DNA of 52,207 nt, the filler included, from Sphacelaria rigidula (lineage: Eukaryota): the NCBI GenBank assembly GCA_964200075.2. It is 4 parts of 4 records of this genome, joined end to end, with 100 filler letters (N's around TTAATTAATTAA, not from the genome) between each part and the next. Parts side by side here need not be neighbours in the genome. Positions count along the whole stretch, not along the records: positions 13,080 to 26,056 come from CAXNAA020003253.1; 3 more parts are not named here. The stretch is one strand, 5' to 3'. Below the pieces are notes generated by a model. That model saw nothing but the letters and a program-made list of their open reading frames with translations, was not told where the DNA came from and ran no database searches. Shown one piece after another: positions 1 through 41,669 of this stretch. The position numbers and the translations under genes are program-made. Position 1 is the first letter of the stretch. Every line of letters starts with the position of its first letter.

Positions 1-332
1 GGCAGAATGTGAACTATACAAGGAGAAACGGGACGTGCTAGACGGGGAAATGCGGGACGTGAACGAAGGTGGCATGATATCGTTTGATGCATTAAACAGG
101 GAGAAAATGATGGCTATACTAGGAGATAGATGGTGGCCAGAGACGGCGAAACAGGACGGGGACAATACATGTAAAAGGTTTCGTGTAATGTATGGAAGAA
201 ACGTAATGAGCTGCGGAAGAAACGTCATGAGCGCCAGAATGTCGGAGGTGTCTCTATTAGAAGAAGGAACGGTGCTCCGTCTCGNNNNNNNNNNAATGGT
301 CAAACGACTAAGGCAAGCAACAAATGAGTACG
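1..332 (+). mobile_element. 3' part of LINE family A (non-LTR retrotransposon), intronic, 5' side outside window
   Basis: Aligns by eye with 14538-14858 (GAACTATACAAGGAG..GGGACGTGCTAGA..GACTAAGGCAAGCAACAAATG). Ends ...GAGTACG and is followed by a C-rich tract. Confidence 0.85.
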
Positions 333-937: not shown

Positions 938-1194
938 GACACTTTCTACGATAGCACCCCCCCCCCCCCGAAACCAGCCGAAAACTGTCACCAAGAACAT
1001 GGTCATACAGCGCCTGATGTTGGGTTCCAGGTTGCTATGAAGCGCCTCAAGTGGGCAACATCGGTGAAAACGAACCCAAGCGTGGGAATTCCTAGCTGCT
1101 CGTTGTGCTCGGCTCCTTTCATCTCGATTTACGTGTAGATTTCGCCTCCCCAAACCAGCCACTTTTTTGGGGTGGGGCTATCGTAGAAAGTGCC
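938..1194. mobile_element. MITE family M1, copy 1 (4-bp TSD ATAC)
   Basis: TIRs GACACTTTCTACGATAGC / GCTATCGTAGAAAGTGCC. ATAC at 934-937 and 1195-1198. Internal homology to 7244-7496 and 18237-18574. Confidence 0.9.
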
Positions 1195-1667
1195 ATACCA
1201 CATACTAGAGGTGTTAATCTAAACTCAACGCACGTGACCCGAATCAACGCAACGCCTTCTCCCGACCCTATATTCATCACTTACCTGTCACCTGTACCAT
1301 TACAACGCCGGGCGCGGGGGCTATATGAAAAACGCGTACTTGCTCACAAGTAGGCAGCTACACTCACCGACCGACTTCAACTCACAAACCTTCAATACTT
1401 GACAGACATTACATCACATCCATCGCCGAAAATAAAATACTTGACACAGTAAACTTTCCATACACCAGAGCAATGGAGGAAACTTGCGATGGATTGTTGT
1501 TGTTGTTGTTGTTGATGTTGATGTTGTCTTCACATCAAAAACCGTTCCAATATCTGCGGAGTACTCTGTACTGGGCATCTGATTCGGACGCCTTGATGGG
1601 CGCCGAAAAACATTATACACGTAGCCAAACACTAGGAAATCCGGATTGGAAAACGTGAACGACTCAT

Positions 1668-2140: not shown

Positions 2141-2297
2141 CTACTTATTTGGGTCAAGGGAGTGCGGTATGTATTGTTGGGAGATACACAGGAGGGGGGG
2201 GGGGGGGGGGGGTTTTGTTTGAATTGCTACTCATTATTTTTTGTGGGGATTTTTTTTTACTTTGCCCACAGGTGTTTGGAAAGGGTGNNNNNNNNNG

Positions 2298-2304
2298 GGG
2301 GGGT

Positions 2305-2352
<48 letters not shown>
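2298..2352. repeat. Poly-G tract next to a 10-N gap
   Basis: Almost pure G run. Length is unreliable because it abuts Ns. Confidence 0.9.
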
Positions 2353-2353
<1 letters not shown>

Positions 2354-2711
2354 GATTTCATTGGATGTGCTACTACATATTTTGTGTGGGCATTTATTTC
2401 CATTATGCCCACGGCTGTTGCGATCGGGTGATGTCCGAGGACGTTCGTGAGACTAATCAAATCGTGCTGTTGGTCTCTGGTAGCGTGCTTCTACGTATCA
2501 TCTGGCAGCGGGCGTACTGGGGATTTGATGCACGTGCCATACGCGTATCTAGTTCCCCACACGAACATGTGGCATCTTGAACCAGTGAGCTCTTCCTTGA
2601 AAATCACTCTGAATGTTGACTGAGACATTCAGAGTGCGGAATTACTTGGAGAGAAATGGAGGTTGGGAGTGTATCACTCAAACGAAGCACACTCCGTTGC
2701 TTGCGGCACTG

Positions 2712-5069: not shown

Positions 5070-5944
5070 CTGTTCACACAGCATGCGGGCAATCACGGAA
5101 CACAAAAAGCCACACGCCATTGCCGTTAACCATGAAACGCAACTGTGCCAAATCTTCTGGGCGCAATTAAGTGCACCGCTCACTTCCTCTGACTTCGATT
5201 GATTACCACACCCCTACTGTGGGTGATGACAAGTTGTGAACGTCGACTTTATCAAGAACCGACACCCCGCACAGCCGCGTGCGGGGGAAGCAGAGACGGG
5301 CACAGATAAAGAGATAAAAGACAGAGAGGTGATGTATACATACATATATATTTTATACATTGTTCACTCGTCCATTGTACGGTTCAAGACGACACAAGTT
5401 TCGGTGGGAAGGGTGCCCGTAGTTTTCAGACGTTAGTGGTCGTCGAAATTTCAACTGTGAGTTCCACACTGCGCAAGCACCACAGTATGAGTCAAGCGAG
5501 CGCAGGGACAGCCATTCGCAGTGACAGTAAGAGTCATCCATGCCACGGTCGTGTTCCTCGCCTTTCGGCAGTCATCGGAGCAGTCGGAAAAAATAAACTC
5601 CCACGTCTGCTCTCTACATTTTCATCAGACCCGTCAGTGGGCCCGTCCTATCCCGCGTATGCGAACATCGCCACATACCAATTGAGCGAAGGATGGCAGA
5701 CGCAAAAACACACCGTCTTCACGACGGCCAATAGAAATCATCCTTCTTTGGACCTTGATTGCTTTCCCATTGGCAGCATCGACAGAGTTACGGTGTTAAC
5801 ACAATCGCTCAACCCAACTTCCCGCATAGACTATACATATAGAAGCACAACAAAATAAACCCTGAACGCAAGGGGATCATAAACTTGGCCGCCCAGCCAC
5901 CACCGCCTGATTGACACAACAACAAGACGAGACAAATCAATTAC

Positions 5945-6176: not shown

Positions 6177-7243
6177 CTGACCATCAAAAGGAAGCGAAAA
6201 CCCAAAGATGATATCCTAACCCAACGTGATGAGAATTACGTATCTGGTGTCTCAGTGTCCTTGCTGAACCGACTACTGGTCTGACGAGACCCGTTGGTGT
6301 TTCTCCAACGGAAGTTTGACGGGACTCACAAGAAGGGCAAGCTATTCGCAAGGTGTCGGACATCGTCACGATATTCGCGTAGAAAAGCGGAGACTCGAGC
6401 GCACAAAGTTTGGATCCTTGGCGTGTCCTGCGTCCTGCACTGTGTGAGCTTCACAGAACAATACCACAACAAGCCTGGTCACAAATAGCCACAATCTGGA
6501 CTGTGCAGGATGAACAAGATACCCTCGGAGTGTTGCACAAGGTCGTTATCCAAAGTTTTCACGAATATCGAAGACTGCATATCTGCACCCGTTGATACCC
6601 ACTTTTTCGACATCTTGTAAACGGCTGGTCTCCTTCATTTATCAGGTATACGAAGCCCACGCAAGCCGTACAACGCCAACCCTAACCACAGGCAGGTATG
6701 AACCGCTTGGCGGGCAAAGAGTCAACTTTCAGAACAAACGTCATCCGGTCAATGGATGAAGGCTACTAGACTAGTCACAGAGCGTCAACAGGGGAAAAGG
6801 CGCCGTCTCCTACTGCACGGTGGCTCCACGCATAACCTTGACCAATTCCGTCTTCCCTGCTCTCACCGAACGCCGGATGCACCTTCTCGCTGCAGCACAG
6901 CCATCAACACAGGCCAACACACCAACCTCCACCCCCCCAACCTCGGCATCAAGAGGTTTGGCGGTGGATCGCAAGATATCATCGGCCTGGGGCCTAGGCG
7001 ATACCAACGAGTTTCGGGTCGCAATGACAGTGACGAAGCGACCTGCGCGGAGCACTATAGTACACGTGCTAGTCCAGCTATCACTGATTGGGAGAGGAAA
7101 TCCTCATGCTCAGAGGACGCTGCGAATATATCTCGATCGACACTCCCTTCGTGTTTACCAGCACCATATGGGCAAATACAAGCGCCGCTGAAAAGCGTCT
7201 GTACTCCGTCGAGCGCGTCCTTGATGAAATATTTTGCACTACT

Positions 7244-7496
7244 GACACTTTCTACGATAGCCCCCCCCCCACAAAACGTGGCTGGTTTGGGGGGGGCAAA
7301 ATCTACACGTAAATCAAAATGAAAAAAGCCGGGCACAAGGAGCAGCTGGAAACCCCAACGCTTGGGTTCGTTTTCGCCCATGTCGCCCGTATGAGGTGCT
7401 TCATGCAGCCTGAACCCAAGCATCAAGCGCTGTATGACCATTTCCTTCGTGACAGTTTTGGGCTAGATTTGCGGGGGGGCTATCGTAAAAAGTGTC
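7244..7496. mobile_element. MITE family M1, copy 2 (4-bp TSD TACT), inverted relative to copy 1
   Basis: TIRs GACACTTTCTACGATAGC / GCTATCGTAAAAAGTGTC. TACT at 7240-7243 and 7497-7500. Confidence 0.9.
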
Positions 7497-8232: not shown

Positions 8233-9447
8233 CTGCTCAGTGTTGGTCAGTGTTGAAAATAGTATGTATCGTGTCATGTAATATCGCATGCCGGAAAATT
8301 GTTGGGCTACATGGTGAAAATCATGATATCTTTCTGCTCAATGTTAGCTTTCAATACCGCGTGAGCCAGACGTCAACATTTTGTGGGTTCGTTCATATAT
8401 TCCACTACGTATATTCAACCAAATGTAGACGCGCGACGTGTGACTCGTGTATAATTGCAAGCTACCTTCTCAGCATCGTTATTTTCCGCCAGTCGTTTAC
8501 CTCGAATCTAGCCTGTGGTCTGCTACCTTGGTGTCTACTTTTACCATAATGCGAGTATATACACGGATGCTCATACATCACATGTATACATAAAAGGTGG
8601 CTGAGCTGGAGGGGCACTAGACCCCCCCCCCCCGAGCGTATTTTTTGCGGTAACCATGATGGCGGTCAAGTTACATCTTTTCGTGCGGGAAGAAGAGCCC
8701 AACTCCGCGCAAAGGTTGTGATCATACTACGGTAGGCTTTCGTTTTGTTCCAGTATAATCGCACGAGTATACTCTCATTCTCTCGAAGACAGAACTGGAC
8801 TTTGGCTATCGAGTCTCCATATCATCGTCCGGAATAGTTATGAATTCGGCGTACAGATTCTTCTTACGAAGCTCAAGCAACTCACTTAGGACTGGTTTTC
8901 AAGTCAACATGTCATAATGACAACGTGACAACACGCCGGGTGGTAACGTTTCGAAATATCACATTTTTCGGTGCTGATGCCACGCTCTCAGGACTTTCTA
9001 CAGACACCATATTGTACAGTTTTTGCTCTCTGTTTGCTCGCCATATTTCCAATCCTTCCCTTTTGAGAGACTTCGTAGTCTCAAGGGACCAACCAACCTC
9101 TCGCCCGGTGTCTGCCGGACATTCGGCCATCGGCCATTGCATCAGCACACCCGCGGCTCATCCTGTCACGGAAACCACAGCTACCCCGCGCTGGAGAACC
9201 CACTGTCCCGTTAAAACTGACCAACGACATACCACGTTCACCTCCGGAGCTTGACGGTCATTAATACATCCGAAATATCAAAACATCAACATATTGAGTC
9301 TTGAACACCCGACTCTCACTCTATTTCTTGTATGATAGCGAAACGAAGGCCGATTCAACAGACGGATACACCTGGGCGTTCAAGCAGTTACACACGGACA
9401 TACAACATCAGGTCAAACACTAGTGTGTTTCGTTTCAAAAGGCGTAC

Positions 9448-10480: not shown

Positions 10481-12979
10481 TGTGCCACATGGCTTAGGTG
10501 GAAAAGGTCATGGCACGGAAAAGCCTGCAGCTCATCTACTACGACTGCACTATATGGGGTATGACCCATCTCATCCATGAGCAAACACAAGAAAGCGAGG
10601 CATTACACCGCTCTGGTATACACACCTAGGAAAGAACACACACACATATATAGAGAGAAAGATGGGGGAAAGGGAGAGCAGAGAGAAAGGGGACTACAGA
10701 AGTGGTGAAGCCAAAGGAATTCAGGACAGCACGGCAGATACAGACACACACCAGGGGCGCACCGCCGAGCCACCGACCAAGGACACAATCAACAAGCGAT
10801 AGGGGCACACAGGATTCTTCGATTGGCAGGAAATCCTAAAACATGTTCTTGCATCGTACGCTGTGGTCGTACGCCGACACAGTCACCAACGTTGTTGGCG
10901 GGTGCGTGTTGTTCGCGTGACAAAAGTGTTTTCACACAGACTTCACAACTGGGCAGTGCTGTATTGCAAAGAAGCAGAAATTGTCGCCACTCGGTCGAAT
11001 GCATGTGCCAGAGTCGCGTGTATGGCACTCTTGCTTGTCGCGATGTACATCATGCTCTTACAACCAAAAAAGGCATCACACATGTTGCTACTTGTAAAAA
11101 TACAGACAACATCATGCACGACAACAAGAGTGTTGTTCGGCACAGCAATATATTAGTGACAGCAGAGCGGTACGGCGCAACGCTATACAGCTCGACAGTA
11201 GACGGTTGCCTTGCTGGTCAGTTCTGTCGGAATGTACAGTAAACAGTCGGTACAAAGTAGAAATGTAGCGATCGTGAGTGTCCTCGGGGGCAGCATGATA
11301 TCGTGGAACTGTTGCCTACTTCTGTTGTTTGGTGATAATTGGGTAAATATACTGGATACTGGCGCACATCGACAGGTCCGCCAGCAGTGCCAGCAGTCGA
11401 CACTTGAAAAACATGCCAAATCATATTATATTGCAGTCACCAAATTCAAACCAAAAGCAAGCAGGCTGATTCTGCTCTGGATCGAACCTCATCAGTCATG
11501 CGATCTGCATTTGGGTGGCGTTGGTGCCTTTTCGCACAAGGAATACCGTAGGTGGTATACGGGGTATAGCACCCCCAGTGATGACCTAGATTCTATCGAG
11601 ATGCGAGACCCACAACTTTCTCGATATCCTTACCAGGACACGCAGTGGGTGGCCGTGATCATGGCGGTTTAATGCGAACACTATGGTCAGAAATTTGGCG
11701 GTCGCCAACATGTTGCCCAGGGCACCCGACATTTGGCATGCGTCGACAGTGTGATGGTTTGAACTGGTTCCTTGTACCAGGAAATCCTGCGGCTTACGAC
11801 CACAGGAACACTCTTACCTCCCACGTGATCGGCAAGCCAAAACACTACCTACATCAGGTCAGAGTCCCCAAAAGACATGTCTGTTCGTCCTATGCTCTGG
11901 TGCTCAAAGGGTAAACATGGGCGCGGGGGGTGTTAAACACCATCATCTCGATTAGCGTACTGTACTGTAAACCGTCTTCGGCTCTTGAAACTTCCGTACT
12001 GTCGTGCGACTTTCGATATGATGGGATGGACACCCGGAGCATCTCACGCCCAGCAAGCACATGCAAATACTTACGGACGATTCGACTAAGATCAATATGG
12101 CTGTTGACCATCACAGCTGGTATCATGTTCACCTCGTCTCTGTCTAGAAGCAGCTCTCCTTCGCCAGTACGGCCAAGCTGCCCCCCGGGCCGCTTTCAAA
12201 ATCCACCTAGAGGAGTATGTGTAACGGTTGCGTATGTGCAAACACTACAACCGAGAGGCGGCCTTGCTGTTTGTCAGTTGTCGATCAAGTTGAAATGCGT
12301 CCCCGACCGTGCCCTTGATAGCGAATAACGGCACACTGTCTGATCCCAGAAAAAAGGATTTCTTGAATAAGCTAACTCCGCCCGTCTCGCCTCTTGCCCA
12401 CAGCCGCACCGCTTTCAAACGCCCGAGAGAAGACCGTTATGTACAACCGTCTTGTGCGGATTATGTACCAACGGGAGTCTTCTCGTTCCTTAGGATCTCT
12501 TGATAGTTGAACTGCGTTCCCGACGGTATTCTACGGCTAAAGGACACTGTCCACAACGGAGGACATTGAAAATCTATGAGGTATTGTCTGCACCACGGTA
12601 CCGCACGATCTGTCGGCGTCAACCCCCAAGAACGGCGAAGGGATGCTCCCCGTGTTTGACTTCGCCTGATGATCTTCACGTTCGCCCTTGCCATGTTCTC
12701 AGACCCGTAATTTCACGATTCAGACACGATCGGTGGCCAGTTTGGTAACCTCGTCATCTTCTTTGACGTTTAGGGCGTTGTTTCGAATCTTGGTAACGTC
12801 ATACATTTTTTTCCCCCTCGCATCGTGCCCAACAGTGGAGAGCGACTATGTCGTGGGTACACAAAGTTCAATAATCGACAAGAGTCATCCTACGATAAGG
12901 GAGGGGGGTATTTGGTCGCACGAAAAAAGAGGCTCAGAAGTGTGTCAGACATCCTGCCACACTTGCGTTGCGCTTGTAT

Positions 12980-13079
12980 NNNNNNNNNNNNNNNNNNNNN
13001 NNNNNNNNNNNNNNNNNNNNNNNTTAATTAATTAANNNNNNNNNNNNNNNNNNNNNNNNNNNNNNNNNNNNNNNNNNNN
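12980..13079. other. Scaffold gap spacer (N44-TTAATTAATTAA-N44)
   Basis: The same 100-nt spacer occurs three times. The linker has stops in all six frames. Confidence 0.97.
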
Positions 13080-13155
13080 GAAAGTGTGAGGAAAGCACTG
13101 TTTTAGGCTTGAACCTCAACTCGTAGTTAAACCTCAATTCGCACAATTTGTTGTT

Positions 13156-14858
13156 CTAGATAAGATAATTCAAGGTAGGACATACGCCGGGTCGACAACG
13201 TACCGTTTCTTTCTGGACGTGCAAAAGACTTATGACACAGTATGGAGGAATGGGTTGTGGAAGAGGCTGTGGTCAGCTGGGATCAGAGGAAATAGGTGGA
13301 GAATGGTAAAAAAGATGTCAGAATGTGCCAAAAGTACCATGATGCTAAACGGGGAAACATCGAAACATATTGATATTTCGATATCTTACAAGGAGTTGCA
13401 CAAGGATGCACGTCATCACCCACTTTGCTCAAGCTATTCATTAATGACTTGGTACCAGCAATATAAGCAGAAAATCAAGGAGTCAAGGTGGGGGAAGATG
13501 CGATATCAGATTTGATGTTCGCCGATGATTTTGTGGGGATTTCAGGAACAGCAGCAGGATTGCAAAAACAGATAGATAAGGCGCTAGAATACACTAGGAA
13601 ATGGAGAGTGACACCGAACGTCAACAAATGCGCGGTACTCGTCTATAAAGAAGATAAGAAAAATCCGGTAGAGTTCAAGTTGAAATGGGGAGAAGAGGAA
13701 CTTCAGATTGTAGACCAGTATGCATACCTTGGCGTAGAGATATCAAGAAACTGTTCTTGGGATGCACGCATAAACAAAGTAATAGAAAAGGGTAAGCTAG
13801 GCACAGACAGGCAGGATGGGCATGATCCTCAGAGACTCGCACTTAGACACGAGGATTAAGAGATGTGCCCTGATGAACGTGATCGTTCCAAAGCTGGAAT
13901 ATGTAGGAGAAGTATGGGAGAGGAACGTGAAGATGGTGAAGAAGTTAGAAACAATACAGATGGCAGCAAGAAGATACTCGGATGCTCGAAAACGACGAGT
14001 AATACAGCACTGAGAGCAGAGTTGGGAATGTACTCACTTGAAACAATCAGAGACATGAGGGAATTGATATGGAAATATAGCGTAAACGTGCAACAAAAGA
14101 GACTGCCAGCTATAGTTGATAAGGCTGTATGGAAAAAAGGTACGAAAGGGCATGCTATATGGTGGGATAGAGAAGTCGAGAAAGTATGGAAGGAGATAGG
14201 ACGAAACCAAGACGAAATACTGTCCATAGGCGAAGGCGTGGGGTACGAGACAAAAGTAAGAGACATGAAACAATATTGGGAGGAGGAGCGCTCAGACGCA
14301 AGGTAGATTCGGAAGAACACCCGAAGATATACGGGGGGTTGAGAGAAGGGATCGGAATGAAACCATATCTTCATGGCCCCATGCACTCGGCGAAAAATTT
14401 GAAAATGCGATTCCGGTTTGGGAACCTGGACCTGCCAGAAAGAACAAAGAGATATACCAGTAGTCGTGTGGAGGAGGAAGTAGATGAACAGAACTGCCTC
14501 TCTTTGGCGAAGGAATAGAGAGCAGAAGTCATATAGTTGCAGAACGTGAACTATACAAGGAGGAACGGGACGTGCTAGAGGGGGAAATGCGGGACTTGAA
14601 CGAAGGTGGCATGAAATCGTTTGATGCATTGGATAGTGGCGAGAAAACGATGGTTATACTAGAAGATAGGCGGTGGCCACTGACGGCGAAAAAGGACGGG
14701 GATAAGATATATAAAACGTTTTTGTGCAATGTAAGGAAGAAACGTAATGGGCGCCGGAATGTTGAAGGTAGCTCCATTAGGAGTAGGAAAAGTGATCCGT
14801 CTCGAAAGGAATGCGTGGTCAATGGTCTAAGGACTAAGGCAAGCAACAAATGCGGACG
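13156..14858 (+). mobile_element. LINE family A, degenerate reverse transcriptase and C-terminal region, 5' part lost at gap
   Basis: Non-LTR RT motifs across frameshifts: FFLDVQKTYDTVWRNGLW, GVAQGC..SP.L..LFINDL, LMFADDFVG, NVNKCAVL, YLGVEI, ALRAELG. Ends AAATGCGGACG followed by a C-run. Confidence 0.93.
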
Positions 14859-15030
14859 CCCCCCTGCCCCCCCCCCAGCCTATCGTAGCATGACTCAGGG
14901 GCAGAAAGTTTTCAATGGCAACCAATCGACTCAACGACTTCGAATGGACCTTCAATACCAAGCAATTTTCACTTTCGAGTAAAACATATTCCTTTTGACG
15001 AATTTCTCCCACCACGGTTTACAGATGCTA

Positions 15031-15379
15031 TCGCCTGGTCGGTGGCTCGGTTGGTAACCTCGAAACCTCCTGACGGTTGGGTCGTGGGTTCATATTTCGG
15101 AGCGATCTGGGATTTTTTCTTACACCATGCCCAACAGTGGAGAGCGACTATGTCGTGGGTACACAAATTCAAATTCGACTTAACGGTTGACGAGGGAAAG
15201 GGGCTTATTGACCTCTCTCGCGATAAAAAATATAGGCAAGCACCGCAGAAGGAAGGTGGGGCACTAAAAGCACAAAAAAAGAAAAAGCTCCTGTGGTGAC
15301 CTTCCTTCTGTGTGACCCCGGCTGGTGCGCCCACATATACCGAAATATGTAGACCGGCATCCAGAACAGATGGGACGAC

Positions 15380-15434
<55 letters not shown>
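15031..15434 (+). mobile_element. tRNA-derived SINE, second full copy, long (CA)n tail
   Basis: GGTGGCTCGGTTGGTAACC..GGGTTCATAT head, body homologous to 9885-10235, (AC)n at about 15381-15434. Confidence 0.82.
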
Positions 15435-15437
<3 letters not shown>

Positions 15438-15896
15438 GCCTAAGCTAGTGCTATCGCCTAAGCTACCCGGAAATCTGAGACAACGAATCATGGAAACTCT
15501 TGTCTACTGTACCAATGGTCCACAACTCCAGCCAAGTGCCCTCTCGACTACAACATCAAACGCCACAACGCATCGCCAAACCGAGGGTATACTTGAGTAT
15601 GCGGCCAGGTGGAGTAAACAGGACATAAATTGTGATGGTCTGCAACCGGCGAGGAGTATGACACAAAAAATCGAAAGGAAACAAGACGAACGGCACACAC
15701 CATGTGGCGAACCGACGATGAAAATAGCAATCGTCACAGCACACACCATGACGAAAAAATACGGCTGCAAAACCAACGCCAGTGGTAAAATGAGTATGAA
15801 CGAGTAAGATTCAGCAGTAGTAGAGACAGACCGCTCGAACACAACGCAATACCTCAATACAGGGGCACCAATGCTAATCACGTGTTTCTGCTCTTC

Positions 15897-16060
15897 ATTG
15901 GTTGATTGATTGTTGCGCTTTAACTGCTGACCCCCCAGGGGTTCAGCCGTGGTCACACGAAACACGTACCCATGAAAAACAGAAAACGAAGCACTCGCTG
16001 AAGAAAAAGAAGGAACAGAAACGAGGTCGAACAGAACGACAAAGTAGACTAAGACCCTCA
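15897..16060 (-). mobile_element. 3' UTR fragment of RTE-like LINE family B
   Basis: GATTGATTGTTGCGCTTTAACTG...CAGCCGTGGTCACACGA..ACGTACCC, matching 10290-10365. Confidence 0.65.
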
Positions 16061-17218
16061 CCCACATATATTCGAGCGTCTGACAAATACACCACCAAGG
16101 TTTGACCGTCCACTATAAGGAAAACAACACGAAAACACTACGATAAAGATTGTAACAAAGGCGTGGAAATAAACAATTCAGTTTGCAATCATTGAGCGTA
16201 CTGGCGGCAAGGAACGAGGATTGTCCAACGGACCTTCTGAGCGTTTCAAGTGCGTCTTGCCCGCTGAACAGCGTCGGAAGATATATGAATACATCAACTT
16301 CGACCTTGCCGCGACGGGCTTGTTTGTATACAGCTGCGAACCCCTACGGCACCCCTCCACGGCGCGGTTGCCCACCTGAAGGTCAGCACGGACACAACGT
16401 ATTGCATACTGCTGGATAAATATAGTTGAATCTCATCTACGACCGATTTCAAAACATATTTTAGGAATGCGACTACCTGTGTACTAAATGAGTGGAGCGT
16501 CTACACCGACGTCTTCGTACACTATAAAACATGAGGGGGGTTAGTTGATATATCGTGTACGTTTGCACTGCAGCTACAAAAATAAGCAGACATTTCAGCA
16601 TGCGGAACGTACCAGGACCTGCTCAGACCAAGTAACCAGTAACCAGCATGCCAAAGTAACAGCACCTACGCACACCAAGCTACCGGCACGCCCCCCACAG
16701 CAAGTTTCGTGTGTTCTGTACATGAGTTGAAAATCCCCCCCCCAACAAACAGCACACGCATTAGACACCGCATTCGCACAGCACAACAAAAACCGTCACA
16801 ACCCGTGTCCTGGTCTCGACACAAGGGACAACACGCCAATGCAACCCGACCGCAACCATAACCATCATCCCCATCATGAATCTCCTGAGAAGGACACAGA
16901 GTATGGCAAGTAGCATCAGCACTTGGACTAACGAGAAATCAATCAACGGTCCAGTTTTATACGTAGCAGCACGTGATGATATAATGCCAAGCGGCACGGC
17001 ACTATTCTTCCAGCATCCGGGATCCGGAAGTGCGGCTTGAGGTCAGTTTTGACGAATAAAGAGCGACACGCACCAGAGTATCCTTTGCTCAACACAAACA
17101 TACACAAATTGACTTCTCCACCCAAACACGACGCTACATCAACGCGAATGATTGAATCACGTTCGGACTATTCAACTGTCTCGAGATCCGAATCTCTGCG
17201 ACCCACACTAGAATTCGG

Positions 17219-17929
17219 TCAGACCGTAGTCTGTGCACCGGGCCAAGCGTCCTCGAACGAGGACACTCCGCAGGACAGGCAGGACCGTACCCTCGGTTGC
17301 CGTAGACCCCCCGCAGTAGGCCACTGCTCGTCGACGCCAGAAACATGACGCGCAATGTAAGAGCTTTGTCTGGGCGTGCCCCTCATGCATGTCTTTCTTC
17401 TCGGCTTGAAGAGCTGAATTTTCCTCATTTCCCCATTTCGGTCGACGGGACCCCCTGGGCGATAAAATAGAAGCCCGAACATCAGGGGTACAACGAGCCA
17501 AAATCCGCTGATTTCTCCTAAGGTACCCACGATATCTAACGGATCAATTTCAGAGAGCCGTTGGTAGCTCTGTGAGCGAATATCCAACTGGATCGAAGCC
17601 AAGGTGTCCGTTCCAAGCTGGTTCGCTTGGGCTATGGCACAGTCAGCGTTGTGCCATGCGGATACCGTCGTGTCGGCTACAGAATAGGTGTGAGTTATGT
17701 CTTTCGCGAGGTTCACATGCTGACTGTATACTACGAAACCCCGAACATACGGAGCTACGGTAGGATCAAAGCTTATTGGTACGTAGAGGGAAATGGGTTT
17801 TCGAAGCGCAGATTCCTCGTCAGCACCTCCTTCTATAAGATACAATTTCACGCTCTCGAAGGCGCCAGTATCCGCCATGGGATCGTAGGAGCTGTTCCAA
17901 GACACCAGGATGTGAAAATGCCACGCCTG
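17219..17929 (-). CDS. Terminal exon of a predicted membrane protein; C-terminal TM region resembles DEG/ENaC TM2
   Basis: Open frame of about 236 aa. Branch-like CCCTGAC and a pyrimidine tract precede ACAG|CAG|GCG. A beta-rich segment precedes YQRLSEIDPLDIVGTLGEISGFWLVVPLMFGLLFY and a basic tail. Confidence 0.7.
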   Translation of the reverse strand, partial: QAWHFHILVSWNSSYDPMADTGAFESVKLYLIEGGADEESALRKPISLYVPISFDPTVAPYVRGFVVYSQHVNLAKDITHTYSVADTTVSAWHNADCAIAQANQLGTDTLASIQLDIRSQSYQRLSEIDPLDIVGTLGEISGFWLVVPLMFGLLFYRPGGPVDRNGEMRKIQLFKPRRKTCMRGTPRQSSYIARHVSGVDEQWPTAGGLRQPRVRSCLSCGVSSFEDAWPGAQTTV

Positions 17930-18236
17930 CTGTGTACAGCCCCGATACACAAAGTGGCAAGCGGGAGCAAGTCAGGGTCGAGCAACGGCGGTATAAGCGA
18001 ATGTCTTCGCAACATATATTGAACGGGCAAACTGCGTTGTTTCGCGAAAACGGTGACGTCAGTAACAATCAAAGACATTACAATGAGCTTGGTGTAACGG
18101 GGTTATTCGGAGAGAGGGTGCTAACTTCAAGATTTCCCGCGCAGAGCATGAAATAGGTGGGTCGCTCGGTGGATTTTAGGGTGAGGTGTACGCCACGGGA
18201 AATCGGACGGGAGATCACCACGGGCAACCTTCATTC

Positions 18237-18574
18237 GATACTTTCTACGATAGCCCTCGCCCCCCAAATAAAGTGGCTGGTTTGGGGAAGCAAAATCTAA
18301 ACGTAAATCGAAATGACAAAAGCCGAGCACCACGAGCAGCTGGGAATTCCCACGCTTGGGGGTTGTTTTCGCCAATGTCGCCCATACGAGGCGCCTCATG
18401 CAGCCTGAACCCAAAGATCAGGCGCTGTATGACGATTTTCTCCGAGACAGTTTTGGGCTGTTTTTGAGGGGGCGTACTCATTTGTTGCTTGCCTTAGCCG
18501 TTTGACCATTGACCATGCATCCCTTTCGAGATGGAGCAGTTTTTGAGGGGGGGGGGGCTATCGTAGAAAGACTC
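18237..18574. mobile_element. MITE family M1, copy 3 (4-bp TSD ATTC) carrying a LINE A stub
   Basis: GATACTTTCTACGATAGC / GCTATCGTAGAAAGACTC. ATTC at 18233-18236 and 18575-18578. Confidence 0.88.
18473..18538 (-). mobile_element. 66-bp 5'-truncated LINE A insertion with 13-bp TSD
   Basis: Reverse complement TGCTCCATCTCGAAAGG...GGCAAGCAACAAATGAGTACG. GTTTTTGAGGGGG at 18460-18472 and 18539-18551. Confidence 0.88.
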
Positions 18575-18949
18575 ATTCCCAGAAGGTTATGTTTGTATTC
18601 CGAGACGCTGGGGGAAAGGGGTTAGGGCGGTTAAAAGCATGGTACGGTAATGGTGAAATGGTAACCGAAACGTGATCCAACACTGCACTTTCTTCTAGAA
18701 GCGAGTGGTGGAAGGTTCATATTCGACACTGAGACCACGGAAGTCTATTGACACCGGCCAGCCCGCTGGCTAGATACAAACGTTTGACTGGATATCAAAA
18801 TCGGCCTGTCTATGATAATCTTTGAAGCTTAAATAATCATCATTGCGGTGTGATATTTTCTGCTACAAACACTGTTAGTGGGTCAATGTTGGTAGTGACA
18901 ACGATTTCGATACGTATCCTTAACTTGTGGGCGAGAGAAGTTAACTTGC

Positions 18950-24082: not shown

Positions 24083-24593
24083 AAGTTCTATCGAACGTGA
24101 GCTCCGCCATCGGATGCGTGACTCGGCGCTTCTTACTGGATCGCCCGCTCCCTCTACTTTACCAAGGCACATCATCCCTTTCAAATTTAGAGCTGGCTTA
24201 GCTGTATAGGCATATATATACACGTATTTTCTCCGAACGTTTAGCCCCCCCACTTTCTCGTGACGAGTCCGTACTCTCGAGGTGTAGACCTATGTAGTCC
24301 CTGGTGCATTGTAAGATCGCGGATTGGATCAGCACCCTCGCACCGCGTCGACGTTCGCCTCACTTTTTATACGACGCATGTCAGACACTCCTGAGAAAAT
24401 ACCCGTATAGAGTTTCATCTGCTAGGAACTAACCCCTCACTCCACCTGAAACGGTTTTGAGATGTACCAGTCACGCCACCGGGGCGCCGGAGCACTTGAA
24501 AGGGCTAGTCGCGGTACCAGGTTTACAGGCTTCTGATCAAAGCAGAGGGGTAGATACGTTTTTTACAACGAGGGTTTTGCCCCCCTCCCCCCA

Positions 24594-24667
24594 CGGCATT
24601 GTGCTTCGTCTCGAAAGGAATGTGTGGTCAATGCTCAAACGACTAAGGTAAGCAGCAAGTGAGTTCG
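24594..24667 (+). mobile_element. 5'-truncated LINE A stub with 14-bp TSD
   Basis: GTGCTTCGTCTCGAAAGGAATG..GACTAAGGTAAGCAGCAAGTGAGTTCG flanked by CCCCCCTCCCCCCA at 24580-24593 and 24668-24681. Confidence 0.85.
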
Positions 24668-24681
24668 CCCCCCTCCCCCCA

Positions 24682-24746
24682 GGAACGGAGTGCTGCGTCT
24701 CGAAAGTTGCGTGGTCAATGGTCAAACGACTAAGGCAAGCAACAAA
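24682..24746 (+). mobile_element. Second adjacent LINE A 3' stub
   Basis: GGAACGG..TGCTGCGTCTCGAAAG..GTGGTCAATGGTCAAACGACTAAGGCAAGCAACAAA. The terminal GAGTACG is missing. Confidence 0.8.
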
Positions 24747-25990
24747 AAATTATTGCGCCAAGGAATTGAATCCGATATTCTAGCAGCTTACCCATGCACG
24801 AAAGCGTGCCCTGAAAAGCTATCCGCACAAGCAGCACCATCACCCCCCTCGCTCCAGCACCCCACCTTCGCTTCATGCGTGTCTCCATTGAAGCAGAACC
24901 GAACGTCGGGAAGCTGTCATGAAGTAGTGTGATCGACGTTTCGAGAGCGAGGACGGTCACCCGTTTAGTAGCGTGAACGGTTTTACGGCACACAACAGCA
25001 GCGAAATAGGTGAACCTCTTCATCGCGACTTGTTTTGTGATCTTTAGTGCAGGGGCACCGACATTTTGATTCAGGGTAAGTGGCAGCGCATCGACCGCTT
25101 CGGACTTTAAATGAATTTTTCGCGATAAATCCTGCGAACAGATTGTCTAGTCGCTTCGCATCGATTCTTTGTACTGTTATCTTCAAATGCGTATTGATCT
25201 CTCGTGCGTTCAAATCTACGATATGCTGTATCGGGGTGCTCTATGCGTTTCCTTGTGAGCAGGCGTCACCGTGGTGTGTAGCCATTTCTACGGGCTCAAA
25301 CACGTGCGCCCACGTGCTCCCCTCCCTCCTCCTGCATAATTCGGGCTACGTCATCGTATCCAGGCACACTTCGTCGTGGAAACTTCCGCCCGTCTCGAAA
25401 AAAACCACGCTATTGCGCATGTATCTGCAGCAGTACACGACACGGAGTACCCGACCCGTTCCCGTCCGCTTAATGACGCACCCGAAATGGCTCCTGCACG
25501 ACCTCCAGTTGCACCGGCGGGTGAGCACGCCGATCGAAGCCGTCTTTCAAGGCCTGAAGCGGGGGTTGGAGAGAGGATAAATGAGGACTAGACAACGTCA
25601 CACACAGGTACACGCAAGAAAAGAGAGGTTCAGTGTAAGCGACGGATAATTCCTTCGGTAGTGCTGATGTGGGGTTTTACATCCAGGGGAAAAGGGCAAC
25701 GACAGAGGTACAACACAGTAGTGGCAGATTCGACAATGCGTTGCCAACCTTTCAAAACGTTCTCGCTCCGTTAAATCTCAATGGTCTTGACGTTATCCGC
25801 TGGAATACTGCTCGATGGTTGCAGCATACATTTCGGGTGTAGTTCGATCAACCGATGCAGGCTGCTTCACGCTTTCGACTCAAAATTCACTCATCCGCTA
25901 ATGTTCGTGGCGATTCTTCGAGTCAAACTTGGAAAATTTGCACACATGTTTTTGTTTTTGTCGCACTTTGAACCCCCCCCCCCCCGTCCG

Positions 25991-26056
25991 CTAGGAGATG
26001 GATGGTGGCCAGACACGGCGAAACAGGACGGGGAAATGATATGTAAGAGGTTCTTG
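25991..26056 (+). mobile_element. 5' junction of a truncated LINE A copy, running into gap
   Basis: CTAGGAGATGGATGGTGGCCAGACACGGCGAAACAGGACGGGGA matches 119-163. Begins 5 nt after a C13 run. Confidence 0.82.
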
Positions 26057-26156
26057 NNNNNNNNNNNNNNNNNNNNNNNNNNNNNNNNNNNNNNNNNNNN
26101 TTAATTAATTAANNNNNNNNNNNNNNNNNNNNNNNNNNNNNNNNNNNNNNNNNNNN
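26057..26156. other. Scaffold gap spacer
   Basis: N44-TTAATTAATTAA-N44. Confidence 0.97.
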
Positions 26157-27929: not shown

Positions 27930-29200
27930 TCAAACCAAATTCAGGCGCAGAGGAAGGAATCTTCGAAGAGACTCCCACGTACGTTCTTCAGCACCGAACC
28001 CCTCCCAATCGACCAATACAATGACATCACCATTGTCATTCTTAGCGACGTGTACCATAGCACTCATCTGACATTCACCTTGAGCATACGCATGCTGAAA
28101 TTCATCTTTTAGTTCCGCAGTGATGTGCAACTGCGAGTCAGCATAGAAACGTAAACGAGCGACATGGGCCGTGTGCACGGCGCCAAAAACAATGTTCTGC
28201 ACCGAATACACGTGAGCGTGATCGGCTCCGACCACTCGCCACGGACGTGGACATCAACTTTGGCGTCACATCTTGCCTACGAACACGGGCATACAATATG
28301 AAAACGCCAATTACAAACTTGGGCAACACAGCCTGGCCCTGAGCAAACTTGCGTTTGGTTTCGCGAGATACCGCGACAGCAGCTTGCACTTCGTTACAAA
28401 ACCGCACTTGCTCGTCAACCACGCCTCGAACCTTGTCACGCAACGAATCGGCATCCATGACATCGACGTTCCACTCGCCGCCAGTGACGGAAGCCAGCGC
28501 GGAAAACACGGTACGGGGCGCACGCCTAAACATCACACAATGCGGAGTGTCACGGTAGCCTTCACGAAAAGAAGTATTCAACGCCCACTCAGCGGCTGAC
28601 AAAACATCAACCCATTCAGACACTGGCCGTCTCTGTTCCGAGGAAATAGACCGCAACGCACGAATAACCTCTTTCACCATGCGTTCACAAGCACCATTCG
28701 ACCAAGGGGTATACGCAACAGTAAATTGATGTTGCATCTTGAGCGCATCGCTCAGCTGTGCGATCACTCGATTCTTGAAGTGCGTGGTGGTATCACCAAC
28801 CCAAACACGCGGCACCCCCAAAGTCTTGCACCAATGGAGCAAGTGCTTAGCCGTAACCTCGGCGGTGCAAGCCTCGGTCGGCTCCAACGAAACGAGATTG
28901 GTCAAATTATACATGATAACCAGAACGTGCCGAAAACCATCCTCAACGGGCAAACCATTAGCATCTTCAGGTCTGCTACCTCCGACGTACAGAAAATCAA
29001 AGTGAACAGCTTCACCTGGCGCAGTACCATGCACAGTATCACCATACGGACGAGGTACGATCGCACCGGCACGAATGTCTGCAACACCGGCGAACGAACT
29101 CGCGAACGTGGGAACCCATGTGAGGCCACACACAGTAGTCTTTCAAACGAAACAGAGTCGGCGCCACACCACGGTGACCAGCCGATCGTTTGTAAGCGCA
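27930..29200 (-). pseudogene. Integrase plus chromodomain (frameshifted)
   Basis: ORFs 28138-29133 (rve DDE core) and 27930-28235 (chromodomain) lie in different frames. Confidence 0.9.
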
Positions 29201-29472
29201 CACCATCAAGCGAGTTTGTGGAGCCTTATCATCCTACGGATTCCACAAAAATGACTATTGCCAACACGCACGCGAAACAAACCGTTATCAGCCAAGGCAG
29301 CTTGACCGAAAGTCGTAGGAAAAGGATGAACACCGTCGCCGACTGTTTTGCGCTGCGCAGTACGAATGACATCTAACGAGGGCAGCGAATCATCGGCATC
29401 ACACGGGCTGTACACGGCAACAGAACGGACAGGCACAGTAGGAACCTTCACCAAGCGAGACAACAAATCCCC

Positions 29473-31749
29473 CTAACAATTTTGCTCTCCAAGAATGTGT
29501 TGAATGACATACCGATACTGTTGTTGGGCTCCCAGCAACTCCCGCATGTCTTTTTGGCTTGACATCGCCCCCGGAGACTGTTCAACGTGCGCGTTCACCG
29601 CCTGATAGTCGCTGACCAAGCGGAATGTGGCCCTCTTCGGCACCGTCATCGTCGGACTCGCCCACACAGCCTGAATGTTTGTAACCAACAAACCAAACGC
29701 CACCAAAGCTGCGATGCATGAAACAAGCGCCACGGTCTGCACCGGATCGCAGCGGCGAGGCTTGGCCTTCGCAGCCTCCTTCATTGGCTCCACACGCGCT
29801 GGCGGATCACCACGCAGCGCACGACGAAATATATCCACGGGATGAGCAAAAATATCACGCAGACAATGTGCCCCATCGGCGCTCGGACCCTTCTCCTCGG
29901 CCTGCTGCACGCTATCCGCAAGCGCACGTTCTCTTGCACCTCTCTCCTCCGCTGGGTCCATAGACATGTCCGGCCCCCGATCGACCAAGCGCTCCACCGC
30001 TTCATCAGCAGGAGCCTTCCTCTCATTGGCGCCCTGGAATTACCGTATGGGTACGGTCATGCTTTGCAGCAAAATAGCCGGGATTTTCCACGCCGGTTTA
30101 CACCGGCACAGCACGCGGGCGTAACTTATCCAACGCCACCGGATACAAATCAATTCCGAGCTCCTTCATCGTCGCCATCCCAAATAGAACCACGTTGTCC
30201 CCACCGGACATGGCAGCGAAAGCAATGGGCTGCAACTCCACAGCTCCCCACGGCGTACACACGCTGACAGTAATCGGCACCGTTTTATGTGTAACCGTCA
30301 CGGGAGCACAAGTGGCGGTCTGCGCCGTTTGCGGTCCGTTTTCGAAAGGAATCTGAAGCTGAGCGCCGCCAAACTGCGAAGAAATTTGCTCTACCAACCC
30401 CACACCGATCGACATGAGCGCATACCCAGAATCCAGAATAACGCAGGCGATGAACGAACCAAAGGAACCAGGCAAGGATAAACCTGCGCACAAGCATTCA
30501 GCCCTGCGATCGACAAGTACCACGCCTGCCGAAGAACCCTGTTCGGTGCCAAGAATCACCTGACGCCAGGGCTGTCTTCCAGCACTTGGCATCGATACCT
30601 ACGAATCGTCGGTCCAACCAGACCAAGTCGCCGAATATGCAGACGGCGCTGTACAGCCGTCGCAGCAGTAGGAGATGCACCAGACACGGTTCCTGCCTGG
30701 CCGAGGGGTTGCGAACTATTCGCTCCAGCACCCCCCACCGAAGTATTTGCATTTCCCACGTACACAGTCCACCCCGCTACGGACGACCCATAAGATCCAG
30801 AGTCACCACCTGATGACGTAGTAGAAGAAACAGCAACGGAGGAACCACCATCCGCCGCCGATTCTCTTGCTACCGCGGCCGCCGCGCCCGCGTCCCTGGT
30901 TGACACGGCCCCGTCCACCGTGACGACCGCCCCGTGATCCTGATAAATCTCGTGCATTACCCTGCGCAGCGCCTTGAGCGCGAGGCTTGGGGTAATCCTT
31001 GATCATATGCCCGGTATCGCCGCAGTTGTAACACGCGCGAGTGAACGACGCTCGCGAAGACGGCTGCTGTTTCTGTTTCTGTTGCTGTTTGCGGCGAGCG
31101 TTACCTGCACTTGCCGCAGAATCGCGCCGGCTATGTGCCTCAATAAATTCCCACTGGTCTGCGGCATCAAATATTGTTTTGAACACCACCGTCGGGTTCA
31201 TTTCCAGCCGTCAACATACATTAGTACGCTTCTAACATACGCCTTGAATTTCGGAGGCGAAATTCCGTCCACTAAAGCTGTGGAAACCGACTCGGCCGGG
31301 CCTGGCAACCCACTTCTGTCCTCCGCACGGTACATGGCTTGCACCATCAGGTTTTCTGCGAAACACTTTTCCATCGCTGAACTGACCATCATCGCACGAT
31401 CCTTCACGGATATTCCACCGCTTTGTGCCATAGTAAATACTGTACGCAGGTCTGCTGCAGCCCGCGGAGTGTCATGCTTGCCGCCGGTTGTAGTGTACCC
31501 GGCATGCTGCTTCACAGCATCTAGCAATTCGTCGGGGATCATAGCCCGACGGTCCTTGTACATATCTTCGAAGCACCGGTGAATATAGGTCGGGATGAGT
31601 TGTCCGATGCTCACTCTCTCATGCCGTAAGACTCCTGTGGCGTTGACTAGACAGAGCCTCTGTAAATAGTCACTATATGCGGCGTAAAATATTCTTGACG
31701 CTTCTTCAGTTAGCAATGCTACGGTAGGGGTGCACCTATTGCGCAACAT
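29473..31749 (-). pseudogene. gag, aspartic protease and truncated RT
   Basis: ORFs 31198-31749, 30803-31201, 30098-30592 and 29473-29997, broken by frameshifts and stops. Confidence 0.85.
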
Positions 31750-32461: not shown

Positions 32462-34557
32462 ATTCGGAGTCTCATTATTGAATTTCCTCACATTAGTCCA
32501 ATCTCTCGAACCCGTAGTCACAGACGAGAGGGGGTGTATCTCACGTTACTCGTGCTGCGTTAGATGGTACGTCCAACGAGTGCAAGGGCCCCGTCGCTCT
32601 CCCGAATACCCCAAACCTGCGGGGTTTCACCTATAACCATCAACTGTTATTCCATCGGACTAACGTGTACATCGCGCAGCTCACGATTTCTGTACTCTTT
32701 TCAGACCTGGAAAAATATCTACCGTCATGATCGCGCACGGTGGAGTGCGGCGATAACAGTCGTGTTCACAGAGTAGTTGGCGATCCTTCAAGTGTTTTTT
32801 GTCTGCCCCCGCTTGGACAGCCCCAGGTTTCGATTATTCGGTATTCTCGCTCGATGAAACCGATCTCAATCGTTGGCGTGAGCAAATGTAATCTTGTTTG
32901 ATTACGAGCTGGAAGCGTGGTTTTGGACCGGTGACGCTCGTTAACACCCCCTGATAAGTGAGGCCTTCCCTCCGTAACATCCCGAATCCCCCCGTTTTGC
33001 TCAATGTATACCGCAAGGTTTGAAATGTGTGCGATAAAAAATATATGAGCAAACGTTTTGTGTTCGCTTGTACCACAGTTCGCACTCGTAACTATTATTT
33101 GATTTGAAATCGGATGCCCCGTCCCCCCTCCCAGGTTGCAATCACTCAATAAATAAGAAAGAATGTGAAAAAAAAGACGTTAGTGTAGTGAGGAATTCGG
33201 ACCGCTAGCCAGCATGGCAGGTCAACTGGTACTGGTATCGCGGTAGATTCAAACCATGTCCCCAAATCAAATGAGGCCCGCATTTACTCCCAGCTCAGCA
33301 TTTCGAGAAGAGATCAAGACCAAGACGTCAAAAGGAAAAGAAGACAGAATGGACACAGATGGTGCTAAAGTCCCGCCGCAACTTAATTTACGGCAACTGT
33401 GTGGACAGCGCTCCCCATATGCCCCGATTCCCCGGAAAACCTGACTTCAACTAATTATCATTATTTTTTTAAACATCAGGTGGATCTCTCACAGAGTGCA
33501 AGGAGCACACCATCCATACCCATATATCAACGGCAGAGGCAGTCGAGAAACGAAACATGTGCATGAAACGAAACGCACACATGCTACGAAATATCTGAAA
33601 AATACCTATTGAACTACTGGAGATGCAACTGAAACTGAATATCCTGTTTATCCGGCAGGAAGGTTTTGCACAGTTCACCCACCAAGCCTGTCAAACGACC
33701 TCATCCGAGGGGAGTCGCAGAAGCAGCGGCCGCACATCCACACATCTGCGCAGCAGCCGCGGACGTGGAGGTTGTGGTTGTAGGTTTCTACACGCCCGAC
33801 TGCTTAGTTGCACGTCCTGCGGTTGATCGCTGCGTTTTCTAACACTGTGATCACAGTGATATTGGAAGCAAAGGTATCGAAACCCATTCCGCTAGCACTA
33901 GGCAGATACTAGGGCTTTTTGGAGTGGTTCTTCTCATGGAGGTTACCGTTAACCCCAGTGAGCTGCGTGCACTTGGAGAGGCCACAGTACGTTTTTGGCA
34001 TGGCCCTTCCTGGTTGCCCTCGTGCGGTGCGTGTGGTTGCCCTCGTGCGGTGCGTGCGGCCCTAGCGAAATACCCACTCTCTCCCCCCCATAGCCCCCCA
34101 TATAATGACCATACTCCAGTATCTCTCGATCCCGTCTCTGTTTAAAGTTGAAGGAGATGCTGCACCCCCCTCCCACGCTCGTCTATCCCCCCTGCGCAGA
34201 CCGTCAGTAAAAAGCGCTATCTGCAACGCTTCAACGGTGTGTTCTAGCACGCCAAATTCGACCTCCGCTTGGACGACGCGGTCTGATCCACGAACGCAGC
34301 GAACAAAAAGTGATTATCAGACCGGTCGGTGCGACGGAGGACGGTGGGGAACGAGCAAAGGCCGGGGAGGGGGGGAGGGAGGGTGGGGGGTACTCATGAG
34401 CTCGCATGCCATAGTCATGAGGCCATTGACCTCGCATCTCTACAAAGCCGGGACGGACCACGCAGGGTTTTCGCCGGACCAGACTCGCAATCAATCACCA
34501 AGCGCGAAGTGCCGTGGTGCACTCTTCGAGTCGCATCAAGGGTGAGCTGCATCCTGC

Positions 34558-34978
34558 CAAGATTGTCCGGCCCACAGCGTACTGATCATCGGGTGGCACG
34601 GGTATGCTCTTGATGGGATATCCGGTCGCGGGTGCGGTTTTTCTGTGCAACCTCCATACCCTACCCGACAGTTTCTGTGAGTGCTGTAAGCTTCCCATAC
34701 TCTCAGCCGACGGTTCTGTGGGTTCTTGACGTAATGTTTACCCGTACCCGGAGTGCGGGTATGCTCTTGAAGGAATACCCGATTGCCGTTACGGTTTTCT
34801 GCAAGCCTCCCATACCGTATCCGACCAGTGCTGAAATTTCTGTGAAACTTTGAAATCGGTGCCCGACAGTTTTGCAACTCCTTTGAGACTTTCATACCGG
34901 TATCCGATAATTCTGTATATTTTGTAAGAAATCTCATACCCTACAAAACATACCCGTACCCTGCATAACACAACCTTG
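34558..34978. mobile_element. Probable non-autonomous DNA transposon with many TACCCG/CGGGTA-like motifs
   Basis: Candidate TIRs CAAGATTGT / ACAACCTTG. Repeated ATACCCGTACC, CATACCGTATCCGA and CGGGTATG. No clear TSD. Confidence 0.45.
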
Positions 34979-39133: not shown

Positions 39134-39233
39134 NNNNNNNNNNNNNNNNNNNNNNNNNNNNNNNNNNNNNNNNNNNNTTAATTAATTAANNNNNNNNNNN
39201 NNNNNNNNNNNNNNNNNNNNNNNNNNNNNNNNN
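39134..39233. other. Scaffold gap spacer
   Basis: N44-TTAATTAATTAA-N44. Confidence 0.97.
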
Positions 39234-41446: not shown

Positions 41447-41669
41447 GTCCACGTGTTGATATCTACTTATGCGCGTCCATCGTGCACTGGATGGGATGGG
41501 CCATTGCGCAATGGTGTGATAACAGCGCCCTTCTCAGCGAAAGACGAAGCCGATTCTTTTGATTTTCTTGGGAAGACGTACGCAGTTGCGTGGAATTACG
41601 CCGAAGACGATTAATGACCTGATACGGGGGGCGATGCTTATTCGCAAGGGGTTGGGATGATGAGTTTGA

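Follow-up and report, generated by a model that had tools for sequence, protein, structure and literature searches.

A LINE of brown-algal type and its probable insertion into oligo-C/oligo-G tracts

LINE A, a retrotransposon family present in a 52,207-nucleotide stretch of Sphacelaria rigidula DNA (the whole stretch analysed here, referred to as the window), is best read as an element that integrates in a fixed orientation by target-primed reverse transcription (TPRT), with (C)n·(G)n tracts as its targets and cuts staggered by about 13 bp. We consider this explanation likely, together with the classification of LINE A as an APE-endonuclease LINE of the brown-alga type with one long open reading frame (ORF). 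Insertion into C/G runs, and not just the carrying of a C-tail, is supported by the data, the sample being small (five readable 5′ junctions). The original prediction, made from the sequence alone, had proposed such insertion, and in this part it is now backed by the run in two sister MITEs, the TSD of the stub at 18473, the C6TC6 around a second stub (stub A), the C13 at 25973, and a C-run on the sense strand at 10 of 10 3′ ends.

The 18473 stub, its TSD, and other LINE A copies in the window

The features on which the analysis is built are collected in Table 1. An identical 13-mer (GTTTTTGAGGGGG), verified by a script check, stands at 18460-18472 and 18539-18551 and encloses 66 bp (18473-18538). 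Since the bases outside it differ (T/A on one side and C/G on the other), the repeat is exactly 13 bp long. In element orientation, the stub is preceded by C11TCAAAAAC and followed by C5TCAAAAAC. Reverse-complemented, the 66-bp stub gives the LINE A 3′ end, which terminates ...GGCTAAGGCAAGCAACAAATGAGTACG; over its 66 bp it is 94% identical to contig L005 at 5087-5152, where the full-length copy ends. In the alignment, both sister MITEs lack the 79 bp and carry G13(T) and G7 at the site. The original prediction had placed the stub in the G-run of a MITE TIR and had described a 13-bp TSD starting with CCCCC in element orientation; both statements hold, as the run is uninterrupted in the sisters (938-1195 and 7243-7496) and the exact 13-mer consists of C5 plus eight non-C, unique target bases. 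The window was also scanned for exact direct repeats of at least 13 nt spaced 60-119 nt apart. The non-trivial matches were the repeat at 18460, the repeat at the 24667 stub, and a 14-mer common to two tandem stubs, the remaining matches being a CAA microsatellite and G-run self-matches. The pair at 18460 and 18539 is the only TSD beyond doubt.

Table 1. Positions of LINE A copies, target-site duplications, and MITEs in the window
Feature	Position	Strand	Remarks	Evidence
LINE A copy 1, reduced by the window start to its 3′ part	1..332	+	flank 333-354 = CCCCTCCTTTCTC10	
Sister MITE, run uninterrupted	938..1195	-	13 C on plus strand at 957-969	
Sister MITE, run uninterrupted	7243..7496	+	C10 at 7261-7270, G7 at 7473-7479	
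LINE A copy 2, degraded RT and C-terminal region	13080..14858	+	5′ side lost in N spacer	
Host MITE, ~253 bp without insert	18240..18571	+	TIRs ACTTTCTACGATAG + C-run, G-run + CTATCGTAGAAAG	alignment with two sisters, self-BLAST
TSD copy adjoining LINE 3′ end	18460..18472	.	reads CCCCCTCAAAAAC in element orientation	exact 13-mer repeat
LINE A 3′ stub, 66 bp, 5′-truncated	18473..18538	-	ends ...AACAAATGAGTACG	nhmmer E=5.5e-20
Second TSD copy, stub 5′ junction	18539..18551	.	remaining G-run to 18557 comes after	
Stub A, ~74 bp	24593..24667	+	C6TC6 at 24580-24592 and 24668-24680	
Stub B, in tandem behind stub A	24681..24746	+	last 8 nt and any C-run missing or diverged	
C13 (25973-25985) directly 5′ of 5′-truncated LINE A fragment (25986-26056)	25973..26056	+	fragment cut by N spacer	
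Short non-autonomous relative, ~180 bp	34364..34572	-	ends ATGAGTAC; 26-nt C-rich tract at 34364-34389	nhmmer E=1.1e-7

The 27-mer given in the original prediction matched at 306-332 (no mismatch), 14832-14858 (two mismatches), and 18473-18499 on the minus strand (one mismatch), with none expected from 100 shuffles. Further matches, to a profile built from the final 100 nt, were obtained at 24595-24667 and 24689-24746 and, in a diverged relative, at 34461-34390. Insertions that have this same 3′ end comprise stubs of 66 and ~74 bp and fragments of at least 71, 337, and at least 1779 bp, with TSDs of 13 and 13-15 bp. Copy 2 has a weak RVT_1 match at 13467-13856 (E=0.0038), translates to RT and C-terminal fragments, aligns by tblastn with residues 797-1360 of the homologous protein P0011, and shows 77% identity to L005 over 1716 bp; its 3′ flank (14859-14876) is C6TGC10, which is followed by the TIR-like CCTATCGTAGCATGACTCA. 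The TSD of stub A is 13-15 bp, the exact repeat being 15 nt (GCCCCCCTCCCCCCA, 24579-24593 and 24667-24681) when an ambiguous G and A are counted. A tandem duplication of an 88-bp unit could also have given rise to this repeat; the units are 82% alike, for which an intact 15-mer is expected at about 5%. The fragment at 25986-26056 starts ~200 nt from the LINE A 3′ end.

The placement of copy 2 within a single MITE-2 element (12883 to 14897) was considered and found untenable, as an artificial-looking spacer (N44-TTAATTAATTAA-N44) lies in between. Three identical 100-nt spacers of this composition occur at 12980-13079, 26057-26156, and 39134-39233, 13,077 nt apart; the window may therefore be four pieces of ~12,977 nt that were artificially joined or masked, and adjacency across the spacers is not to be assumed. 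Short N runs are also present at 285-294 and 2288-2296.

Tail or target at the ends of LINE A

Read base by base, 10 of 10 family-A 3′ ends stop at ...AAATGA(G/C)TAC(G) and pass directly into a C-rich tract, always in one orientation. Four of these ends lie in the window (332, 14858, 18473, and 24667) and six on contigs L001-L006, four of the outside copies coming from metagenome-scan contigs and two from MAGs evidently containing algal contigs. The window ends at 332, 14858, and 24667 read GAGTACG, GCGGACG, and GAGTTCG, and they are flanked by CCCCTCCTTTCTC10, C6TGC10, and C6TC6, respectively; the six contig flanks are C11GC5, C8GCACCTCC, C10, CCTC7TCCTCCC, C13, and C9TC9. All four diverged relatives with the common 3′ module (window 34390, L006:2640, L009, and L010) also continue into a C-rich tract. 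The claim that the family stops at GAGTACG or a variant and runs straight into a C-run is thus confirmed at the four window ends and extends to the six contigs. Its companion, that the element is tail-less, stands with regard to poly(A) and microsatellites: a poly(A) or A-rich tail of the L1-like kind was seen at none of the 10 ends, and a microsatellite tail at none of those at 332, 14858, and 24667. For C itself, the claim fares less well, since the 3′ C-tracts are mostly 10-22 nt long (~19-25 in the contig consensus) compared to 7-13 in the three MITE copies, so that RNA-copied C (or slippage) may contribute in part.

Logan contigs of four public runs (X1-X4) were aligned on window positions 14400-18700 at 80% likeness; X1 and X2 come from a single sample, and the window itself may derive from one of the runs. 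In these contig tables, which are not copy counts, loose ends just before 18468 were found in 832, 863, 617, and 812 records (X1-X4), with a consensus of a further 14-20 G, i.e., in element orientation, a C-tract of ~19-25 behind GAGTACG; the agreement over 30 letters was only 0.43-0.46, and the distal letters are therefore noise and the run lengths vary. Joints skipping 18466-18547 occurred in 5, 6, 5, and 5 contigs and are empty MITE sites, whereas joints returning 71 nt (from 18538 to 18468) occurred in 33, 39, 23, and 33 contigs and, with variants of 48, 64, 69, 70, and 73 nt, are head-to-tail arrays of stub plus C-run that are common in these runs; for both kinds of joint, those at less than 95% likeness can come from repeats. 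Such arrays would be expected if the C-run that lies behind a copy can in turn receive an insertion. Past the 5′ end of the stub, the consensus of X1 and X2 has 8-11 letters before a G-run sets in, that of X3 stays LINE, and that of X4 is mixed.

Four of the five readable 5′ junctions (the 18473 stub, stub A, stub B, and the fragment at 25986) abut a C-run of at least 11 nt, compared to a chance level at which, with both strands counted, C5 starts at 282 of the 104,414 positions in the window (0.27%) and C10 at 0.07%. The C-run is therefore at least partly target, and C-runs lying only 3′ of copies, which the original prediction had named as evidence against itself, are not what these junctions display. 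At stub A, an identical C6TC6 stands on both sides, with TTTTG preceding it upstream, and the 3′ run does not exceed the 5′ run in length, so that this insertion can be explained without an element-borne tail; stub B follows the same C6TC6 that forms the 3′ side of stub A. The remaining junction belongs to the LINE copy on L006, which starts at ~344 with no C-run at its 5′ junction and for which a TSD was sought and none was detectable. The three measurable lengths (13 for the 18473 TSD, 13-15 for the stub A TSD, and 13 for the C13 at 25973) agree with a fixed stagger. The features of a target-specific LINE found here are thus a 3′ flank of one type in one orientation and, in a small sample, a run that predates insertion and reappears at the 5′ junction.

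An element-borne homopolymer tail, equivalent to poly(A) or to the short repeats that end CR1, L2, and RTE-type LINEs and stemming from a C-tailed RNA template or from untemplated addition by the RT at essentially random targets, would readily produce a C-tract at 10 of 10 3′ ends and tracts that are long, variable, and in excess of the MITE runs; it would also suit the L006 junction, and template jumping between C-tailed RNAs could yield the arrays. We nonetheless regard it as unlikely, since the MITE site held its run before insertion (as seen in the sisters and in the empty-site joints), the interrupted C6TC6 brackets stub A with no surplus of C on the 3′ side, the C13 lies 5′ of the fragment at 25986, and C-runs abut four of five 5′ junctions against a chance of ~0.1-0.3% each. 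A pure C-tail with random targets is contradicted by these observations, and a partial contribution from element-borne C is possible.

The runs could instead matter only as part of a larger site, LINE A being specific for the TIR of one DNA-transposon/MITE group (a C/G-run plus TATCGTAG), much as Tx1L is for Tx1D. The ATCGTAG motif is found no more than 25 nt from three of the 10 LINE ends (window 14882 and 18560; L003:5013), and the diverged relative on L009 is also near one, but seven of the 10 3′ flanks lack this motif, which suggests that TIR runs are convenient targets rather than that the TIR itself is recognized; with stub A, the fragment at 25986, and copy 1 all located at runs without a nearby TIR, we consider TIR specificity very improbable. 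Recombination, slippage, tandem duplication, or assembly artefact at G/C homopolymers, with no insertion preference at all, would find material in the extreme runs of the window (G19, and G48 adjoining an N gap) and in the resemblance of copy 4 and stub B to a tandem unit. This explanation deserves hardly any credence in view of the clean 13-bp TSD with eight unique bases around a precisely 3′-complete stub, the recurrence of the junction on six independent contigs from other assemblies and in the four runs, and the invariant orientation. As to the preferred reading, insertion into C/G tracts, runs of 9-18 nt with no adjoining LINE (8622-8633, 16735-16743, 44615-24, 50202-10, and 52119-36) indicate that free target runs exist.

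Coding capacity, short relatives, and neighboring repeats

When the RT fragment of copy 2 was used as a query, 12 proteins were retrieved, including unnamed Ectocarpus proteins, an Undaria model, and the marine-metagenome proteins P0011 and P0012, and the closest named homologues of LINE A are Ectocarpus proteins. The full-length relatives P0011 (1360 aa) and P0012 (1328 aa) contain RVT_1 (E=9.8e-31 and 1.7e-32), Exo_endo_phos (PF03372) N-terminal to the RT (E=3.4e-12 and 8.1e-15), and a CxCx8Hx4C motif behind the RT at the C-terminal side; P0011 also matches PF14529 (E=3.3e-7, above its cut-off). The original prediction had called for typing of the endonuclease, which the Exo_endo_phos domain of these two full-length proteins identifies as APE. 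All the hallmarks of an APE-type LINE were accordingly found, namely, an RT domain, an APE domain N-terminal to it, and 3′-complete, 5′-truncated copies with variable TSDs. In a PDB sequence search with the RT, L1 ORF2p scored best (E=6.6e-21) and the R2 RT nearly equally well (E=8.8e-20), so membership of LINE A in L1 does not follow. The LINE A 19-mer and protein alignment gave no match in viral contigs.

Intact ORFs of ~1360 aa are present on contigs L003 and L005. The ORF terminates in ...TKASNK, encoded by ACT AAG GCA AGC AAC AAA TGA GTACG, and as the TGA stop lies 5 nt before the element end, there is practically no 3′ UTR (~5 nt). ORF1 is absent from the ~1 kb upstream of the ORF in L003 and L005, a region that is non-coding, partly tandemly repeated, and mutually homologous up to the contig starts; because this 5′ UTR homology reaches the contig starts, none of the copies obtained is complete from one junction to the other. 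Two features of L003, an 8-bp 'TSD' (CCTTATCA) at position 313 and what looked like an inverted repeat on either side of the LINE, were rejected, since the L003/L005 homology runs through this region, which is 5′ UTR. The ~60-nt tandem repeats in the LINE 5′ UTR at the start of contig L005 (1-180) recall monomeric LINE promoters. Ahead of the endonuclease, residues 1-160 of P0011 are conserved in the distant relatives P0019-P0050 with the pattern ...V.VFGVP...F...C...GL..F..G.V..EG.H.R..L... and have no Pfam match; this N-terminal domain may serve in RNA binding and take the place of ORF1.

The short relative at 34364-34572 has the last ~70 nt of LINE A in common. It has no tRNA or Rfam head, and no 5S or snRNA head was found in the short relatives. 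The last 50-70 nt of LINE A alone, followed by a C-rich tract, also occur at L006 2640-2830 (minus strand), L009 ~1500-1565, and L010 ~1490-1560. TSDs were sought for the relatives at 34390 and L006:2640, and none was found. With regard to RNA structure, the 3′ module folds no better than shuffles (z=0.16), shows compensatory change in 0 of 17 pairs, and has no Rfam match; the stub starts span ~16 nt (66-82 nt from the end), where the minimum free-energy fold has a small hairpin.

Other repeats in the window are associated with C-runs. At 2190-2430 (minus strand), two copies of another repeat of ~80-100 nt, 77% alike, are followed by very long C-runs (C19, and C48 plus C7 adjoining an N gap), which makes this a second family with a tandem layout of unit plus C-run. 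A second TIR type related to the MITE TIR (GAGTCAT.CTACGATA.GG + G-run) is located at window 12883-12912 and 14877-14897, L003 5008-5025, and L009 1430-1450, and LINE ends adjoin its C-run side both in the window and on a contig from outside it. Elsewhere in the window, Helitron remnants extend over 41641-47145 on the minus strand, with Helitron_like_N at 46333-47145 (E=5e-37), PIF1 helicase pieces at 42963-43788, and weak UvrD_C_2 and OTU matches among them at 41641-42492. Weak integrase-core (28141-29142) and zinc-knuckle (30806-31210) matches, also on the minus strand, are probably what is left of a degraded LTR retrotransposon at 28141-31210.

Proposed mechanism, known systems, and meaning

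In the TPRT reading that we favor, the sense strand of LINE A would always be continuous with the C strand of the target. The G strand would be nicked within the run (after the fifth of 11 G at the 18473 stub) or at its 3′ edge (stub A), and the exposed ...GGG-3′OH would prime cDNA synthesis exactly at ...GAGUACG. A second-strand cut ~13 nt away would then create a TSD of ~13 bp that starts with C's, and because the TSD begins with C's, each copy would be bracketed by C-runs. Reverse transcription would often abort after ~66-80 nt, leaving stubs, and the C-run behind each copy would constitute a new target, so that stubs and C-runs would alternate in head-to-tail arrays. Insertions would frequently land in MITE terminal repeats with C/G runs. 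The nick itself may be specific for G-runs. R2 transcripts contain downstream target sequence in the RNA. By analogy with L1 and R2, LINE A transcripts might read through into the C-run of the donor site, with the C's of the RNA annealing to the G primer, and annealing further out on the RNA C stretch could lengthen the 3′ run.

The known targets of APE-type LINEs are A/T-rich nicks, multicopy genes, and a few microsatellites. Microsatellite-specific LINEs include Kibi at (TC)n, Koshi at (TTC)n, Waldo at (ACAY)n, and Mino at (AC)n, while Tx1L targets Tx1D, and CR1, L2, and RTE-type LINEs carry short-repeat tails. LINE A, which would be their homopolymer analogue, resembles the microsatellite-specific APE LINEs in its APE endonuclease, its oriented insertion into a simple repeat, the target repeat 3′ of every copy, the lack of poly(A), and the possibility of tandem re-insertion. 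It departs from them in having a mononucleotide C/G tract as target, which is absent among the elements listed in excerpts of PMC4640811, where Tx1 and R1 are given as target-specific APE groups. Its ~5-nt 3′ UTR and strong bias toward ~70-nt stubs set it further apart from that group.

The RNA of L1 ends in poly(A), and its primer is an oligo-T produced by a TTTT/AA nick. Like L1, LINE A has a homopolymer at the junction, a TSD that starts with the base of the run following the element, 5′-truncated copies, and an APE together with an RT. Unlike L1, it uses C/G rather than A/T, has no ORF1 within 1 kb upstream of the ORF, and has no long tail beyond the bases supplied by the target in the two resolvable events. 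Eel UnaL2/UnaSINE1 is a LINE/SINE pair of the stringent type, to which LINE A is similar in that a conserved 3′ module of ~70 nt is common to the LINE and to short non-autonomous elements. This shared module implies that it is the 3′ end, not poly(A), that is recognized. In contrast to the eel pair, the LINE A module is coding, has no significant RNA structure, and is not followed by a short-repeat tail.

In brown algae, a 2025 paper on Ectocarpus transposable elements assigns LINEs to the clades CRE, RTE, RTE-X, and 'Unknown' and, in the portion available, describes RTEX-N1_Ec32, which is non-autonomous and has its 3′ end in common with RTE-X LINEs (PMC12477816). By that partial description, LINE A is like the Ectocarpus RTE-X LINEs in its brown-algal hosts, its high abundance, and a short partner with a common 3′ module (PMC12477816). 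Tails or target runs are not mentioned in the main text of that paper, as far as the available portion goes (PMC12477816). In searches of the published literature, no (C)n/(G)n-targeting or C-tailed LINE was found; the LINE A family is almost certainly already contained in brown-algal repeat libraries.

We tentatively propose, at slightly less than even confidence, that LINE A could be the first LINE lineage with integration specific for homopolymeric G·C tracts, using oligo-G as L1 uses oligo-T, having virtually no 3′ UTR so that coding sequence doubles as the recognition module for the RT, and, as each insertion duplicates and possibly lengthens the run, seeding and spreading long C/G tracts, stub arrays, and non-autonomous passengers in brown algae. 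If true, the G/C-homopolymer rule would represent a new APE-LINE specificity, easily tested with purified endonuclease and TPRT assays, and a natural counterexample to set beside L1 and its poly(A)/oligo-T 'snap' model, in which the roles of priming complementarity and nicking preference in site choice could be compared. A compact RT with a defined RNA start and a simple programmable primer would also be of interest for RNA-templated insertion tools. The rule would help to explain the abundance of long C/G runs and of stubs in short tandem arrays in these genomes, which is relevant to how well brown-algal genomes are assembled, to the annotation of their repeats, and to maps of their G-quadruplexes. 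If the G·C-tract-specific reading is true, LINE A would be one of the chief sources of the G-tract DNA (potential G4) found in brown-algal genomes.
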